The position numbers were made by a program, and so were the translations under genes. A DNA stretch of 64,000 bases from Minisyncoccota bacterium (GTDB lineage: Bacteria > Patescibacteriota > Minisyncoccia > Phycocordibacterales > GWA1-40-21), in the NCBI GenBank assembly GCA_041674925.1, contig JBAYUW010000002.1, positions 13,622 through 77,621 on the forward strand. Reading direction: 5' to 3'. Under the pieces are notes generated by a model. That model did no database searches, was not told the origin of the DNA, and saw nothing but the letters and a program-made list of their open reading frames with translations. The first letter of the stretch is position 1; each line of letters opens with the position of its first letter. Shown here in pieces: positions 27,062 through 60,304 of this stretch.

Positions 27062-27146
27062 ATTAGGGAATAAAAGCGTTATAATTTGACATAGTACCCA
27101 AATTTTGCTAAATTAGGATAGTTAGGTATCCTAATTTAATAAAAAT

Positions 27147-28271
27147 ATGATAGTAAGAATACTAGAAAACCAAATAAAGGAAGCCCTCTTTAAAGGTAAA
27201 ATTATTGTCTTGTACGGAGCCAGACAAGTTGGTAAGACCACTATTCTAAAAAAAATAGCCCAAGAAAACAAGGATCAATCTATGTTTTTAAATTGCGACG
27301 AATTAGATGTTCGCCAAGCCCTGACTGACAAAACGTCCATCGAATTAAAAAGGTACTTGGGAGACAAAAAATTAATATTAATAGATGAGGCTCAAAGAAT
27401 AAGGGATATTGGGCTAACTCTGAAACTCCTAATCGACACTTATCCAGAGATTCAGGTGATCGCCAGTGGCTCATCAAGTTTTGATTTGGCTAATAAAGTA
27501 AATGAACCCTTAACTGGCCGTAAAACAGAATTTTTCTTATTCCCAATTTCCTTGAATGAATTACGTGCTAGTCACAATGAAATTGAGATGGATAGTCTAA
27601 TCAACCATTTATTAATTCGTGGCTCATACCCAAAAGTCATCACTAGTGAAAGTAATACTCTGGCCGAAACGACTATAAATGAAATTACTGGCAGTTATCT
27701 CTATAAGGATATTCTGCAATTTGAAGGTTTAAAGAAACCAGACTTGATTGAGAAGCTTTTGCAAGCGCTGGCGTTTCAACTTGGTCAAGAAGTCTCTTTT
27801 ACTGAATTATCCAGATTATTAAATACTAACAGGAAAACAATAGAAAAGTATGTTTCTCTTCTAGAAAAAGCCTTCGTTATTTTCCGCTTAAATCCCCTAA
27901 GTCGAAACTTGCGAAAGGAAATTGGTAAAAATAAAAAAATATACTTTTACGATCTTGGGGTTAGAAATAGTATAATCCAAAATTTTAATGAGGTGGGGAT
28001 TAGAAATGACCTTGGGGCTTTGTGGGAAAATTTTATGGTTGTCGAGAGGATGAAAAAAAATTACTATGGAAATAATAAGCCAAATATTTTCTTCTGGCGC
28101 ACCTATGATCAGAAAGAGATAGATTATATCGAGGAAAGCGGTGGAAAGATGAGTGGATTTGAATTTAAATGGTCTGATCAAAAATGGAAAAAGCCGTTAG
28201 GCTTTTTGGAGTCATATCAAGATAGTACCGCCACCTTGATTACGAAGAAAAATTACACCGATTTTGTATAG
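27147..28271 (+). CDS. AAA-type ATPase with DUF4143-like C-terminal domain
   Basis: 374 aa. Walker A GARQVGKTT, Walker B LILIDEAQ. Overall AAA_14 + DUF4143 layout judged by eye. Confidence 0.75.
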   Translation: MIVRILENQIKEALFKGKIIVLYGARQVGKTTILKKIAQENKDQSMFLNCDELDVRQALTDKTSIELKRYLGDKKLILIDEAQRIRDIGLTLKLLIDTYPEIQVIASGSSSFDLANKVNEPLTGRKTEFFLFPISLNELRASHNEIEMDSLINHLLIRGSYPKVITSESNTLAETTINEITGSYLYKDILQFEGLKKPDLIEKLLQALAFQLGQEVSFTELSRLLNTNRKTIEKYVSLLEKAFVIFRLNPLSRNLRKEIGKNKKIYFYDLGVRNSIIQNFNEVGIRNDLGALWENFMVVERMKKNYYGNNKPNIFFWRTYDQKEIDYIEESGGKMSGFEFKWSDQKWKKPLGFLESYQDSTATLITKKNYTDFV

Positions 28272-46949: not shown

Positions 46950-47600
46950 ATGCCAGACGTGCAAAATAAAAAGAGAAAAGCAATTTATGTTTTTATTGAC
47001 GCTTCCAATCTGTTTTATGAAGGAGAAAAAAGTTTAGGTTGGAAGATTGATTATAAAAAACTGTATGTTTATCTCCACAAAAAATATCAGGCCAGTAAGA
47101 TTTTTTATTTTGGCGGGGTGGAGATTCATAATTATCAGTATGATTATTTAGCCAATGATACAGTACCTATTTTTAAATTAAAACTTTATCTAGAAGGTCT
47201 TTTAAAAAATAAGACTAAAAGCTTAAGTCGAGACAATCTTGATTTAATTAATAAACACTTACAACGAATTAGTTTTTATGCAAAGCTCTCCACTTTTGGT
47301 TATGAACTTTTTCTAAAACCAGTAAAACTTTACAATCTTGGGGACGGGTTAATGAAGCGTAAGGCTAATTGTGATGTTGATATGAGTTTTCAAATAATGA
47401 AAGTAGTCGATAATTTTGATATGGTCATTTTTCTTTCGGGTGATGGAGATTTTTTACCAATATTGAAGTATCTAAGAAAAATCGGGAAAGAGGTAATCGT
47501 TTTAAGTCGTGGCCCCAGAACAGCCAAGGAAATAAAGCAACTAGCCGGAGGAAATTTTAGGGATTTTGAATATATCCGTAAATATATTGAGTATAAATAA
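46950..47600 (+). CDS. NYN/LabA-like domain protein (second paralog)
   Basis: 216 aa. IYVFIDASNLFY ... IFLSGDGDFLPILKYLRK. Confidence 0.8.
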   Translation: MPDVQNKKRKAIYVFIDASNLFYEGEKSLGWKIDYKKLYVYLHKKYQASKIFYFGGVEIHNYQYDYLANDTVPIFKLKLYLEGLLKNKTKSLSRDNLDLINKHLQRISFYAKLSTFGYELFLKPVKLYNLGDGLMKRKANCDVDMSFQIMKVVDNFDMVIFLSGDGDFLPILKYLRKIGKEVIVLSRGPRTAKEIKQLAGGNFRDFEYIRKYIEYK

Positions 47601-47672: not shown

Positions 47673-48713
47673 TTAAAGTAATTTATTCCTACTCTTCAAA
47701 TTCAAATGCTTCTTCGCCCTTTCGGTGACCACTCGTCCACGCGAAGTCCTTTCAATGAAACCAAGTTGTAGGAGGTATGGCTCGTAAACATCTTCGATGG
47801 TGGCTTGTTCTTCCGACAGGGCGGCGGCCAGGGTATTGAGTCCGACTGGTCCACCATTAAACTTTTCTTCAATTACTGTCAGTAAAGCACGGTCGGTTGG
47901 GTTTAAACCAACTTCGTCAATGCCAAGTAAATCAATTGCTTCCATCACAATTTCTTTTGACAAATCACTTTCACGAATTTGCGCCAAGTCGCGGCTTCTT
48001 TTTAAGAGATAATTGGCAGTGCGGGGGGTAAAGCGACTTCTTTTGGCAATTTCCTTTTTTGCTTCGTCAGCGATTTCTATTCCCAAGATTTTTGCCGAGC
48101 GTTTGATTATCTCTTCTATTTCTTTGTCCGAGTAAAATTCCAGTTTAAAAACTCCACCAGAGAATCTGGAGCGTAGGGGAGCGGACAGCATCGCAATGCG
48201 GGTTGTGGCGGCAATTAAAGTGAATTTAGGTAGGTCAAGCTGAATGGTGCGGGCCGACGGACCTTTACCAATAATAATATCCAGTGACCCACTTTCCATT
48301 GCGGGGTACAAAACCTCTTCAATCGTTTTATTTAGACGGTGAATTTCATCAATAAATAAAATATCGCCGGGAGAAAGATTGGTTAAGATGGACGCGAGGT
48401 CGCCAACTTTTTCAATTGCTGGGCCAGAGGTGGATTTCAGTTGAGCGCGCGTTTCGTGAGCAATTAAATGAGCGAGAGTAGTCTTACCAAGCCCTGGAGG
48501 ACCGTAAAAAAGTAAATGTTCGGGCGGATGCTGTCTTTGAGCGGCGGCCGTCAGTAAAATATGCAAATTGTCTTTAATGTTTTTCTGACCGATATAGTCG
48601 GCCCAAACGGTAGGGCGTAGGGTTTGATCTAAAAAATTAACGTCGCCCTTTTCGGGGCTAGTTTGCTGGTTTTTTAGGGAATTAGCTTGGGAATCTTGTT
48701 TTTTGCTTGACAT
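47673..48713 (-). CDS. ruvB: Holliday junction branch-migration helicase RuvB
   Basis: 346 aa. [20 protein letters not shown], winged-helix C-terminus. Confidence 0.95.
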
Positions 48714-48779
48714 ATTTTTTGTTTTATGCTAAGCTTACTAGTAGAAGCCTTTCACAATTTCTGGGGCTTTTTTTGTAAG

Positions 48780-48951
48780 TCCAGAATATAAATCTCTAAG
48801 CAATTGGATCGTTTGCGCGGTTTACGAATTTTTCCTAGAGGACGGCCTGGTTCACACCTTCGGGTGATTTGCGAGACCTATCCTTGAAGAACTATTTAAC
48901 TTTTGGTATCTAATATTAAAAGTATTGCTTAGAGATTTATCTTCTGGATCC
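48780..48951 (-). ncRNA. Candidate structured RNA (independent sRNA or ruvB 5' leader) closed by a 25-bp stem
   Basis: TCCAGAAtATAAATCTCTAAGCAAT (48780-48804) is the reverse complement of ATTGCTTAGAGATTTATcTTCTGGA (48924-48948) with one mismatch. The 119-nt GC-richer core has a CACC-TTCG-GGTG hairpin. A promoter lies immediately upstream on the minus strand. Confidence 0.4.
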
Positions 48952-48957
48952 TTTTTA

Positions 48958-48986
48958 ATCCTATCCCTCCACCGTTTCAATGTCAA
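48958..48986 (-). promoter_or_regulatory. Promoter TTGACA-N17-TAGGAT firing into the 25-bp-stem element
   Basis: -35 at 48981-48986 and -10 at 48958-48963 (minus-strand reading), inside the last codons of the pilB-like gene. The stem arm begins 9 nt after the -10. Confidence 0.5.
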
Positions 48987-50649
48987 TGACGCGACCAAGT
49001 TCAGGAAGAGAACTGACACCTGTCAAGACGCGGATAACACCATCTTGTTTCATATCTAATAAATTTTGTGAGGCGGCGGCCAGACGAATATCTCGATCGG
49101 AAGGATTATTTATTATTGCTTCCTCAATTTCTTTTTTCATTAAAATAACTTCCGTGATAGCAATTCGTCCGCGATAGCCAGTTTTGTGACACTTTTCACA
49201 ACCAACCGCCTCCCACACTTTTTCGGTCTGAAGGCCGGCCAAATAAGTCTTATCAGTAATTGATTCTAATGTTCTGTCTAAGAAGATACGCTCTTTAACG
49301 GTGGGAACTTTTTCGGTCTTACAATCAGGACATAATTTTCGAATCAATCTTTGGGCCATCGCCACATTAATCGCTGAGGAAATAATTTTTGGATTAACTC
49401 CAAGGTCAATCAGGCGGGGGAAGGCACCAGCTGCTGTGTTGGTGTGCAATGTAGAAAAGACCAAGTGTCCAGTTAAGGCAGAATTAATAGCGATATTCGC
49501 AGTTTCGCCGTCTCGGATCTCACCAACCATGATTACATCTGGATCTTGACGCAAGGCGGAACGCAAACCAGACAAGAAAGTATATTCTTTTTCTTCTTCC
49601 ACTTGCGTCTGTACAATTCCTGGTAGATGATACTCAATCGGATCTTCAATCGTAATAATTTTAATATCAGGGGAGTGAATCTTTTTCATGAAAGCATAAA
49701 GGGTGGTTGTTTTTCCTGAACCAGTCGGACCGGTAATTAAAAGCATACCGTTTGGTCTTTTGATCTGTTCCATCAGTGTCTCTAAAGTCCTTTTTTCAAT
49801 ACCCAAATCTTCAATCGGCACAGAAATAGATTTTGGGTTCAGTAACCTCATCACAATTGATTCATTGTATGCGCCTGGGAGAATAGAAGAACGAATTTCA
49901 ATATCATTATTTAATATTTTCACGCTAAAACGCCCGTCTTGTGAGGTGTTCTTGATATTTAATTTCATTCCCGACAGTAACTTTATTCGAGATAAAAGTA
50001 ATTCATAAGTTTCTGTGTCGAAAGTGCTGACATTGATCAACACACCATCCAAACGAAATCGAATATTCACGTCGTTCTCTTCTGGCTCGATATGAATGTC
50101 TGACGCCGATAAAGCCAAGGCCCCGGCGATCATCGCCTCCATCATTCTAGAGATTTTATAAGCTTTCTTTAGTGTGAGTATTTCTTTAATAATAACAGTG
50201 ATATCATCGATTTTTTTAATTTTATTAACAAATTCAGCAACTTGTTCAGAGGAAATATCGAAAGTTCCAGCCGTTGAGGTGGTGGCATAAGAAAGATCTT
50301 TATAGCGATCCCAAGCTTTTTCCAAACTCATGGTGGTCGCCATATTTATCTGAATTTTATAACCCTCAGCCTCCAAATTTTTCAAAATAATAACTGCTTT
50401 TTCGTTTTTAGGAGAGAAAAGAGCGACTTGAATTTTTTTGCCGACACGGGCAAAAGCGGCGATCTTGGCTTCGCGGGCCAAATCTTCAGGAATCAATCTC
50501 AAAGCTTCGGTATTGATAGGAATCGGTTTTAAATCAATGAAATTTAAACCATATTTGGTGGATAAGACCCGAATCAGTTCCTCCTCTTCTTTTTTGTAGA
50601 GGTCTTCAAGCCGTCTCTCTTGTTTTTCTTCATTGTCAAAAGTCGTCAT
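48961..50649 (-). CDS. pilB: GspE/PilB-family secretion/type IV pilus assembly ATPase
   Basis: 562 aa. Walker A GPTGSGKTTT, Asp box, Walker B VIMVGEIRD, His box TGHLVFSTLHTN, tetracysteine CPDC...CEKC. Confidence 0.9.
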   Translation of the reverse strand: MTTFDNEEKQERRLEDLYKKEEEELIRVLSTKYGLNFIDLKPIPINTEALRLIPEDLAREAKIAAFARVGKKIQVALFSPKNEKAVIILKNLEAEGYKIQINMATTMSLEKAWDRYKDLSYATTSTAGTFDISSEQVAEFVNKIKKIDDITVIIKEILTLKKAYKISRMMEAMIAGALALSASDIHIEPEENDVNIRFRLDGVLINVSTFDTETYELLLSRIKLLSGMKLNIKNTSQDGRFSVKILNNDIEIRSSILPGAYNESIVMRLLNPKSISVPIEDLGIEKRTLETLMEQIKRPNGMLLITGPTGSGKTTTLYAFMKKIHSPDIKIITIEDPIEYHLPGIVQTQVEEEKEYTFLSGLRSALRQDPDVIMVGEIRDGETANIAINSALTGHLVFSTLHTNTAAGAFPRLIDLGVNPKIISSAINVAMAQRLIRKLCPDCKTEKVPTVKERIFLDRTLESITDKTYLAGLQTEKVWEAVGCEKCHKTGYRGRIAITEVILMKKEIEEAIINNPSDRDIRLAAASQNLLDMKQDGVIRVLTGVSSLPELGRVIDIETVEG

Positions 50650-50697
50650 ATGAAAACATTATAACATAAACCATAAAAACTGAGTGGAATTTTATGC

Positions 50698-50889: not shown

Positions 50890-50932
50890 GGCGCGCGACG
50901 TGGACAGGTGTTCACAAAGCGCGCCTTTTTTT
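50890..50932 (+). terminator. Rho-independent terminator of cassette B
   Basis: GGCGCGC...GCGCGCC with an inner GTGGAC/GTTCAC extension, then TTTTTTT. Confidence 0.7.
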
Positions 50933-50953
50933 ATTTATGCTAATATATAAAGT

Positions 50954-51391
50954 ATGAAATTTTTAAGTAAGAATGTAGAGGAAACCAATAAGATTGCGCA
51001 AGATTTCTTGCAGAATTTAAAAGCTAATAAAAACAAGGCTACCTTAGTTGGTTTGTTTGGTGATCTGGGCTCTGGTAAAACTACTTTCACCCAAGCCGTC
51101 GGTCGGGAATTAGGAATCACTGATTTTATCACCAGTCCAACTTTTGTGATCGAGAAAATTTATCAACTCGACGGGAAATTTAATTTTAAAAATCTAATCC
51201 ATATCGATGCTTATCGTCTCGACTCCGGAAGAGAATTACAGGTTTTGGGATTTGAAGAAATTTTGAAAGATTCTCAGAATTTGATTTTATTAGAGTGGCC
51301 AGAGCGAGTAATCGATATCCTCCCAACCGACCTAGTTAAACTTAATTTTAAATTTATTTCAGAAAACGAACGGGAGATAGAAGTGTTATAA
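50954..51391 (+). CDS. tsaE: tRNA t6A biosynthesis ATPase TsaE
   Basis: 145 aa. GDLGSGKTTFTQ, HIDAYRL, EW. TGcTAATAT-N7-ATG. Confidence 0.85.
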   Translation: MKFLSKNVEETNKIAQDFLQNLKANKNKATLVGLFGDLGSGKTTFTQAVGRELGITDFITSPTFVIEKIYQLDGKFNFKNLIHIDAYRLDSGRELQVLGFEEILKDSQNLILLEWPERVIDILPTDLVKLNFKFISENEREIEVL

Positions 51392-51398
51392 TATCAGT

Positions 51399-59737: not shown

Positions 59738-60304
59738 TTATTTACCTAAATGTTTTAAAGCCGCTTTCACTTTTGCCCCAGTCTCTTTTATATTGGAATC
59801 AATATCTTTGAGTGCCTCACGAGCTTCTTTGTGGGAATAACCAAGCGATTTCAAAGCTTCCAGCGCATCAACTTCTTCTTTAATACTGTGTGCGGTTTCT
59901 TCTTCTGATGATAACTTGCCTTTTAATTCCAAAACTAATTTATCAGCCATTTTTTTACCGAGACCAGAAACTTTGGTCAGATGCGCTGTCTCGCCGGTGG
60001 AAATGGCTTTTTTCAGAGAGCTAATCGTCGCGACATTCAGTATCCCCATCGCGGTTTTGGGTCCGATACCCGAAACGGTGATGAGTAGTTCAAATAAATT
60101 CAATTCTTCGGCGGTTTTGAAGCCATAAAGATCGAGGGCATTTTCTCGGACGGCTAAATATGTCCACACACTTATTTCTTCTTTTTCTTTGACTGAGGAA
60201 ATTAGCTCGGTGGTCGCAAAAACCTTGTAGCCCAAACCGCTAGCCTCAATAATTAGAAACTTGTCTCGGCAACTCATGACCGACCCTTTTATATGTGAAA
60301 TCAT
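59738..60304 (-). CDS. ruvA: Holliday junction DNA-binding protein RuvA
   Basis: 188 aa. MISHIKGSV, two HhH motifs (VSGIGPKTA, VSGLGKKMA). Confidence 0.9.
   Translation of the reverse strand: MISHIKGSVMSCRDKFLIIEASGLGYKVFATTELISSVKEKEEISVWTYLAVRENALDLYGFKTAEELNLFELLITVSGIGPKTAMGILNVATISSLKKAISTGETAHLTKVSGLGKKMADKLVLELKGKLSSEEETAHSIKEEVDALEALKSLGYSHKEAREALKDIDSNIKETGAKVKAALKHLGK

Follow-up and report, generated by a model that had tools for sequence, protein, structure and literature searches.

The region between the pilB-like gene and ruvB in the 64-kb stretch of DNA analyzed here (the window, 64,000 nucleotides [nt] in all) very probably encodes a structured small RNA (sRNA) of a new family, which is read from the plus strand, opposite to both neighboring genes. 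The best overall explanation of our data, to which we assign a probability of about 0.6, is a stand-alone structured sRNA gene whose product binds protein and whose promoter competes with ruvB. Since more than 100 divergent genomes have retained the element at one and the same location, together with an extremely conserved promoter, the element is very likely to be important to the organisms that carry it. The genomes of Saccharibacteria and of CPR bacteria in general are tiny, and their intergenic regions are very short; the analysis yielded, for one such region, a covariance model, a strand prediction, a predicted promoter and predicted transcript ends, as well as a hypothesis that ties a stable-RNA promoter to the expression of ruvB. 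According to a transcriptome study of TM7x, a cultured strain, small RNAs have yet to be validated in that organism.

An inverted repeat between pilB and ruvB

Two arms of 25 nt each, located at positions 48780-48804 and 48924-48948 of the window, are 96% complementary to each other, with one mismatch and a spacing of 119 nt. The original prediction had described this near-perfect inverted repeat with its 119-nt core, and no arm pair of such a kind appeared in 100 shuffles. The same prediction had suggested that the copy number be checked by BLAST; when the 247-nt region was searched against the window, it matched only itself, and a second copy of the arms was not found within the 64-kb window even when three mismatches were allowed. 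The core had also been called GC-richer than its surroundings, which is true to a marginal extent (41% versus 38.7% for the window) but does not extend to the whole 169 nt (37.9%). Compared with shuffled controls, the region folds with a z-score of −6.6 on the minus strand and −6.7 on the plus strand.

The element is bordered by two genes of the minus strand. One is ruvB (47673-48713), which encodes the RuvB_N, AAA lid, and RuvB_C domains and whose ATG falls within the −35 box of P_R, the promoter described below; the other is the pilB-like gene for a type II/IV secretion ATPase (T2SSE; 48961-50649), which is convergent with the RNA gene. There is no codirectional gene after the element on the plus strand. 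No conserved open reading frame (ORF) was found in the element, in which ORFs of at least 12 amino acids start at scattered positions on both strands. A type I toxin-antitoxin locus was ruled out, as there is no conserved small ORF on either strand.

Rfam 15 scans returned nothing for the element, neither at the gathering score across the window nor at an E value of ≤10 on positions 48600-49100, which agrees with the earlier statement that it belongs to no recognized RNA family. Nothing relevant was obtained with 16 other family members at an E value of ≤5, and the models of SRP RNA, tmRNA, RNase P RNA, and Y RNA had no match in the window, in the element, or in these 16 members. Five tRNAs were the only Rfam matches in the 64-kb window. 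Literature searches for an earlier description of the element found none.

Conservation, synteny, and copy number

A degenerate pattern assembled from conserved pieces of the element had matches in at least 120 metagenome contigs, and a family set of at least 112 distinct homologues was retained after 12 chance matches had been discarded. The identity of the element is 86 to 89% in close relatives, and it can still be recognized in loci whose PilB is about 59% identical. Species genomes scanned by way of PilB yielded loci that are mostly labeled Candidatus Saccharibacteria, and the best 120 matches of the RuvB homology search all came from close relatives (identity of at least 77%). At NCBI, the identical RuvB carries the label Candidatus Paceibacterota; under either label, the organism belongs to the CPR/Patescibacteria.

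Among the matches listed, all loci with enough flanking sequence show the order pilB (upstream), element, ruvB (downstream), with both genes on one strand. When 831 kb of related loci was searched with the covariance model, exactly one copy was found per locus, and no copy was found in the loci of other phyla outside the Saccharibacteria. IMG/VR viral contigs were free of the element as well. In one related genome (L012), pilB and ruvB abut directly with no RNA gene between them, and the covariance model finds none there. We regard the RNA as a new family, described neither in Rfam 15 nor in the literature searched and restricted to Saccharibacteria-type (CPR) bacteria.

Because there is one copy per locus at a constant position between pilB and ruvB, the sequences indicate a single-site, vertically inherited element and rule out a MITE. 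The element does share with MITEs a core, here of about 120 bp, between terminal inverted repeats, here of 25 bp, and a MITE-like origin had been raised as an alternative in the original prediction. It differs from MITEs in being single copy at a constant locus, in its inner covariation, and in strand-specific selection at the RNA level; target-site duplications or direct repeats beside the arms were not noted in the flanks read, as had also been remarked before. Thus, given the single copy in the window and per locus in the 831 kb, the constant synteny, and the covariation described below, the earlier choice of a dedicated structured RNA element over a MITE was right. A retron noncoding RNA (ncRNA) was also rejected, since no reverse transcriptase gene is adjacent and the neighbors encode the T2SSE ATPase and RuvB at all loci with enough flank.

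Fold and covariation of the RNA

The covariance model was built from 52 representatives with less than 80% identity, and 100 sequences were realigned to it (alignment A4). The 52 modeled pairs were paired in 93.5% of the alignment cells versus 83.8% in column shuffles, two-sided changes affected 36 pairs and 541 cells versus 23 pairs and 164 cells, and the covariation score was 0.379 versus 0.186; not one of 500 shuffles reached the observed value on any of these measures. When the partners were slid by 1 to 3 columns, pairing fell to 35 to 48%. Covariation of the closing helix P1 was already visible in a plain MAFFT alignment, in which one pair is U-A in 57 sequences and C-G in 47, while another is A-U in 38, U-A in 36, C-G in 12, and G-C in 8. 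In an independent mutual-information scan, nearly all top pairs fell on the model, and the few extra ones extend Pa, Pb-ext, and the apical stem; a pseudoknot search by mutual information gave no signal beyond the nested model. A covariation test in relatives had been proposed along with the original prediction, and both the long stem and the core helices indeed covary.

The resulting architecture consists of a long P1 and three arms, Pa, Pb, and Pc, that meet in a four-way junction, with a P1-to-P1 length of 155 to 176 nt across the family. The 5′ strand of P1 (48779-48804, plus strand), of which the inner 16 nt AUAAAUCUCUAAGCAA is nearly invariant, pairs with the 3′ strand (48924-48949, plus strand) in a helix of 25 to 26 bp. 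P1 is paired in 96.1% of the cells and shows two-sided changes in 16 of its 22 pairs, and its outer part is variable in sequence and covaries. These data indicated that the 25-bp stem is the closing helix of a conserved structured RNA. A dif/Xer site was rejected as an identity for the stem: the outer part of P1 changes together on both sides, and no XerD-arm consensus was seen in the alignment.

Pa is a hairpin (UGGAUCGU paired with GCGGUUUA; 48805-48824, plus strand) of variable sequence that covaries in all five of its pairs and is often GC rich with a UNCG cap. The Pb arm (48826-48897, plus strand) is composed of Pb-ext (48826-48834 with 48889-48897), the conserved helix GAGGA/UCCUU (48838-48842 with 48881-48885) with a conserved C/UA internal loop, a CUGG helix in which a tandem U·G/G·U is conserved, and the apical stem, the sub-helices adding up to roughly 25 to 30 bp. 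The apical stem ends in CACC-UUCG-GGUG (48855-48866), and a cUUCGg cap is frequent at this place in the family. This hairpin had been pointed out in the original prediction as CACC-TTCG-GGTG, and it is present; nevertheless, the UUCG loop exists on the plus strand only, and a transcript of the minus strand, to which the structure had been attributed, would read CGAA. The Pc hairpin (ACUUUUGGUAU paired with AUAUUAAAAGU; 48899-48923, plus strand) contains an invariant CUUU/AAAG and two conserved G·U pairs, the minus-strand equivalents of which are A·C mismatches. Conservation sits in helices, namely in the inner 16 bp of P1, in GAGGA/UCCUU with its C/UA loop, in the tandem G·U of Pb and Pc, and in CUUU/AAAG, and it includes few single-stranded bases.

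The functional strand

The pair statistics argue that the functional strand is the plus strand of the window, antisense to pilB and ruvB. In the plus orientation of alignment A4, G·U pairs outnumber A·C pairs by 763 to 70 over all helices, and the excess holds in each of them (75 to 20 in P1, 86 to 6 in Pa, 64 to 5 in Pb-ext, 343 to 36 in Pb, and 195 to 3 in Pc). Since A4 had been fitted to the plus-strand model, the count was repeated on a structure-agnostic MAFFT alignment. There, in the minus orientation, A·C outnumbered G·U by 88 to 3 in the six outer pairs of Pc and by 99 to 58, a modest asymmetry, in P1. With the G·U excess of P1 being modest in the unbiased alignment, the constraint on this helix could also stem from the DNA or apply to both strands.

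Consensus folding with RNAalifold, on one alignment, yielded −33.1 kcal/mol for the plus strand versus −25.1 kcal/mol for the minus strand, whose consensus fold retains P1 and two 4-bp stems only. The predicted tetraloops of the plus strand comprise 45 of the UNCG type (30 of them C(UUCG)G), 9 CUUG, and 9 GNRA, versus 11 GNRA loops and no others on the minus strand. Minimum free energies were better for the plus strand in 106 of 108 sequences, by a mean of 12 kcal/mol. We set this gap aside as a deciding argument because the plus strand is rich in G and U, a composition that by itself favors folding, so that the gap is partly compositional, and because the two strands of the window have equal z-scores.

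The original prediction had placed the RNA on the minus strand, transcribed from a TTGACA-N17-TAGGAT promoter (48986-48958) as a long structured ruvB leader or a processed sRNA. The promoter sequence is there as described, similar sites are enriched in relatives, the element always lies upstream of ruvB in the orientation of that gene, and P1 would form on this strand too. Yet a minus-strand transcript would carry A·C mismatches throughout the inner helices at the places where the plus strand has G·U, its consensus fold would be the reduced one, with loops reading CGAA, and the minus-strand site, here termed P_L, has counterparts in about half of the loci versus 97% for P_R. The G·U bias, the UNCG loops, the promoter, and the U-tracts all favor the plus strand, and we consider a minus-strand RNA very improbable. 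A palindromic closing stem, which folds alike on both strands, can mislead strand assignment. Because the structure was selected on the plus strand (763 G·U versus 70 A·C), the element is no cis-acting RNA structure of the ruvB transcript; neither the leader function once proposed for it nor a riboswitch of ruvB is sustained.

These statistics also bear on a purely DNA-level origin, in which the arms would belong to a MITE or a relic of a transposon, serve as a pair of inverted binding sites for a protein, or form a cruciform beside ruvB. The sequence conservation of the inner 16 bp in both P1 arms and the modest P1 asymmetry in the unbiased alignment fit such an element. Selection on DNA does not, however, explain the covariation of Pa, Pb, and Pc, the strand-specific G·U pairs, or the UNCG loops, and the element is single copy in constant synteny, with no dispersed copies in the window or the 831 kb and none in viral contigs. 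We thus hold a DNA-level element to be extremely improbable.

Promoter, leader, and 3′ end

A near-consensus sigma-70 promoter, P_R, precedes the structured region on the plus strand (48707-48735). It consists of a −35 hexamer TTGACA (48707-48712), a 17-bp spacer, and a −10 hexamer TAAGCT (48730-48735), with an extended −10 of the TRTG type (TG at 48727-48728); the position-wise profile of relatives likewise has this −16 motif. The pattern TTGACA-17-TGnTAnnnT was found before P1 at 104 of 107 loci; among these 104, TTGACA is perfect in 103 and the spacer measures 17 bp in 99. The distance from P_R to P1 ranges from 10 to 107 nt, with a median of about 44. The exact pattern occurs twice in the 64-kb window, versus 0.05 occurrences expected.

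From P_R, transcription is predicted to start at about position 48742. The transcript would then begin, at about +1/+2, with a leader hairpin (AGAAGCCUU paired with GGGGCUUUU; stem 48743-48751 with 48763-48771) followed by U7, the whole spanning 48743-48776 on the plus strand in the predicted fold. This hairpin resembles a terminator, and in close relatives its stem is conserved and its loop variable. A GC hairpin with a T-run lies between P_R and P1 at 37 of 104 loci, including that of the window. Candidate roles for it are protection of the 5′ end as a stem-loop, a signal for processing, and attenuation; efficient termination at this site would end most transcripts ahead of the structured part, and little full-length RNA would be made.

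Directly after P1 comes a U-rich tail, CCUUUUUA (48950-48957, plus strand), which stops 3 nt short of the stop codon of pilB (48961-48963) and is the probable point of intrinsic termination. On the plus strand, 49 of 105 loci have either a T-run immediately following P1 or, within 80 nt, a GC hairpin plus T-run, versus 6 of 107 loci on the minus strand; a recognizable 3′ terminator on the plus strand is thus present in only about half of the loci. With an end at the U-tract, at about 48957, the RNA would be about 215 nt long; trimming of the 5′ hairpin would leave about 170 nt.

Interlocking with the ruvB start and the facing minus-strand site

The −35 hexamer of P_R contains the start codon of ruvB (CAT at 48711-48713 on the plus strand), the opposite strand reading ATGTCAA. 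At 68 of the 94 loci that could be assessed (about 72%), RuvB starts in frame at this ATG. In the remaining 26 loci, ruvB starts further downstream, in some of them with a leaderless promoter of its own, and TTGACA is retained; the hexamer is thus kept as a promoter element and not for its codons alone.

Leaderless mRNAs are typical of the window: in pilB, polA, and tsaE, the −10 box lies 7 to 9 nt ahead of the ATG. The spacer of P_R shows extra A-rich conservation where a −10 box of ruvB would fall. The ruvB mRNA may therefore be leaderless and have no overlap with the RNA. As P_R and the ruvB promoter are interlocked, RNA polymerase cannot occupy both, and we infer from this geometry that the strong sRNA promoter limits the transcription of ruvB. 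A polymerase at P_R would exclude or block those making ruvB mRNA, and the supply of RuvB would be coupled inversely to the activity of the sRNA promoter. The coupling could also be mere genome compaction; in L012, pilB and ruvB are adjacent in the absence of the RNA gene.

The promoter-like site P_L (TTGACA-N17-TAGGAT; 48958-48986, minus strand) lies in the last codons of pilB and is convergent with the RNA gene. Minus-strand promoter-like motifs with a score of at least 9 are present at 51 of 102 loci versus 6 of 102 in a reverse-complement control, and those of relatives often read TTGCnn-N16-AATAAT. The minus-strand promoter of the original prediction is thus backed as a sequence match and by this enrichment in relatives, but the structure that it was thought to transcribe was not selected on that strand. 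In the cases inspected (the window, L053, L058, and L096), no start codon follows such a site. No minus-strand terminator was detected ahead of ruvB, as had been stated before; hence, if P_L fires, its transcripts would cover the entire sRNA in antisense and run on into ruvB. P_L may serve ruvB as a second promoter, or it may act to control the sRNA. A transcript entering from pilB or from P_L would be fully complementary to the RNA.

This arrangement could be read as that of a pure cis-antisense regulator, a plus-strand RNA that pairs or collides with minus-strand transcripts (from pilB or from P_L into ruvB) and has no function in trans. The strict linkage to ruvB, the overlap of P_R with the ruvB start, and the enrichment of convergent minus-strand promoter-like sites upstream of the element fit this well, and complementary transcripts are unavoidable if both promoters fire, with no minus-strand terminator before ruvB. 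The antisense position between co-oriented genes, a promoter overlapping the ruvB start, and the facing promoter-like site are indeed features shared with cis-antisense RNAs and with overlapping or convergent promoter pairs that work through transcriptional interference. However, perfect complementarity requires no fold, whereas here the junction, the tandem G·U, the UNCG loops, and the compensatory changes have been kept across more than 100 divergent sequences, structure being the most strongly selected feature of the element. Typical cis-antisense RNAs are not known to show deep conservation of an elaborate fold. Moreover, the RNA and P_R are unchanged in the 26 of 94 loci with a downstream ruvB start, and a ruvB mRNA that is leaderless would not overlap the RNA at all. 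We therefore consider it unlikely that the RNA is a cis-antisense regulator and nothing else.

Comparison with known RNAs and proposed mode of action

By shape and size, 6S RNA (ssrS; RF00013 and related) remains the closest named analogue. The two have in common a size class of about 155 to 215 nt, paired ends in a long closing stem, a rod shape with a second long arm, a stand-alone gene with a strong promoter, and a conserved genomic neighborhood. A function of this kind, with the RNA binding and sequestering sigma-70 RNA polymerase as an open-promoter mimic, is in keeping with the very strong conserved promoter, which resembles those of other stable RNAs, and with the P1-to-P1 length of 155 to 176 nt; furthermore, no 6S match was found in the window, and no paper joining Saccharibacteria and 6S RNA came up in the literature search. 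On the other hand, covariance-model similarity is absent, with no 6S match at an E value of ≤10 for the element of the window or ≤5 for the 16 other members. In place of a large single-stranded bubble, the molecule has at its center a four-way junction from which two stable, covarying hairpins project, and its closing stem shows sequence conservation, which is atypical of 6S RNAs. A 6S-like function thus appears quite improbable.

The element also resembles orphan structured bacterial ncRNAs that have a promoter and a terminator of their own, such as the raiA motif RNA, OLE, and the Y RNAs, in its phylum restriction and its complex, covariation-rich fold. In those RNAs as in this one, sequence conservation in helices suggests protein partners, and the neighboring genes do not reveal the function. 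It is distinct from them in having no Rfam 15 match to any, in its architecture of P1 plus three arms, and in a promoter interlocked with the start of ruvB.

For the stand-alone sRNA gene that we favor, we envisage the following. The RNA would fold as a rod in which the 25-bp P1 is continued by the long Pb with its cUUCGg cap, and Pa and Pc would branch off at the four-way junction midway. It would be abundant and stable, and it would act through one or more bound proteins, as an RNP, rather than as a base-pairing regulator. Protein binding is favored because the conserved positions belong to helices, to internal loops, and to G·U pairs and not to single-stranded, seed-like regions. The family stands a fair chance of representing a new RNP. 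The combination of protein binding with interference in cis at ruvB is a mechanism that we put forward tentatively, as a proposal with less than even odds.

A bolder version, which we consider rather unlikely in its entirety, is that the RNA forms the core of a new RNP specific to Saccharibacteria-type CPR bacteria, in which a lineage-specific protein would read the duplexes and the tandem G·U, and in which a promoter of the stable-RNA type would be wired to the start of ruvB. If it were true, recombination repair (RuvB) would be switched inversely to growth-dependent transcription of the sRNA, a regulatory design without description elsewhere.

A role in replacing RuvA or in mimicking a Holliday junction was also considered. 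A search with the E. coli RuvA sequence as the query located a RuvA homologue at about 59.9 to 60.3 kb of the window, some 11 kb from the element. Since RuvA is encoded in the window, the RNA is not a substitute for it.

Surroundings of the RNA gene in related genomes

The RNA gene between pilB and ruvB differs among relatives in what lies on its pilB side. As seen in L006, L061, L080, L052, L078, and L064, 0.8 to 2 kb of additional DNA separates the pilB stop codon from the RNA gene (L006:5684-7200 in the first of these loci), while the distance from the RNA gene to ruvB is still short in the relatives with an enlarged pilB side. The pilB side seems, judging from sequence, to be an insertion hot spot. 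By eye, the L006 insert contains long stretches resembling reverse-strand coding sequence.

In one related Saccharibacteria genome (L012), pilB directly abuts ruvB (L012:5659-5728); the RNA gene is absent between the two genes, and the covariance model of the RNA has no match within 9.6 kb of this locus sequence. Either the RNA gene was naturally lost from this genome, or it is placed elsewhere in it. At four further loci (L041, L056, L075, and L081), the metagenome contig ends within the element, short of a full extractable arm of the closing helix P1, and these ends may be assembly breaks at the inverted repeat.

Promoters of the RNA gene and of ruvB

A terminator-like GC hairpin followed by a U-run lies between the sRNA promoter P_R and P1 in the window (48743-48776) and at 36 other loci, and it begins at the predicted transcription start of the sRNA. 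In lineages whose ruvB start lies outside the −35 hexamer, exemplified by L126, L073, and L062, a separate TAGTATAAT box is located 6 to 7 nt 5′ of the new ruvB ATG, downstream of the P_R motif. Since the shifted ATG is preceded by a box of its own, the predicted promoters at these loci are back-to-back and divergent rather than overlapping.

Related promoters and ruv genes in the window

Besides P_R, the exact pattern TTGACA-N14-TGnTAnnnT has one match in the window, at 27086-27146. The inverted repeat TAGGATAGTTAGGTATCCTA lies 3′ of this promoter and is followed by an ATG at 27147 that opens a 374-aa ORF; this repeat could be an operator that overlaps the transcription start. TGnTAnAAT-type −10 boxes were also observed 7 to 9 nt 5′ of the start codons of pilB, polA, tsaE, and other genes (sites at window 50650-50680, 51370-51398, 50925-50953, and 27117-27146), and no Shine-Dalgarno sequence was visible at these start codons. 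From their sequences, these window genes look leaderless.

Downstream of ruvB, the minus strand of the window carries yebC and ruvC, and a plus-strand NYN-domain gene (46950-47600) is situated between ruvB and yebC. The gene for the RuvA homologue (59912-60304, minus strand) is not a neighbor of ruvB and lies about 11 kb away from it.
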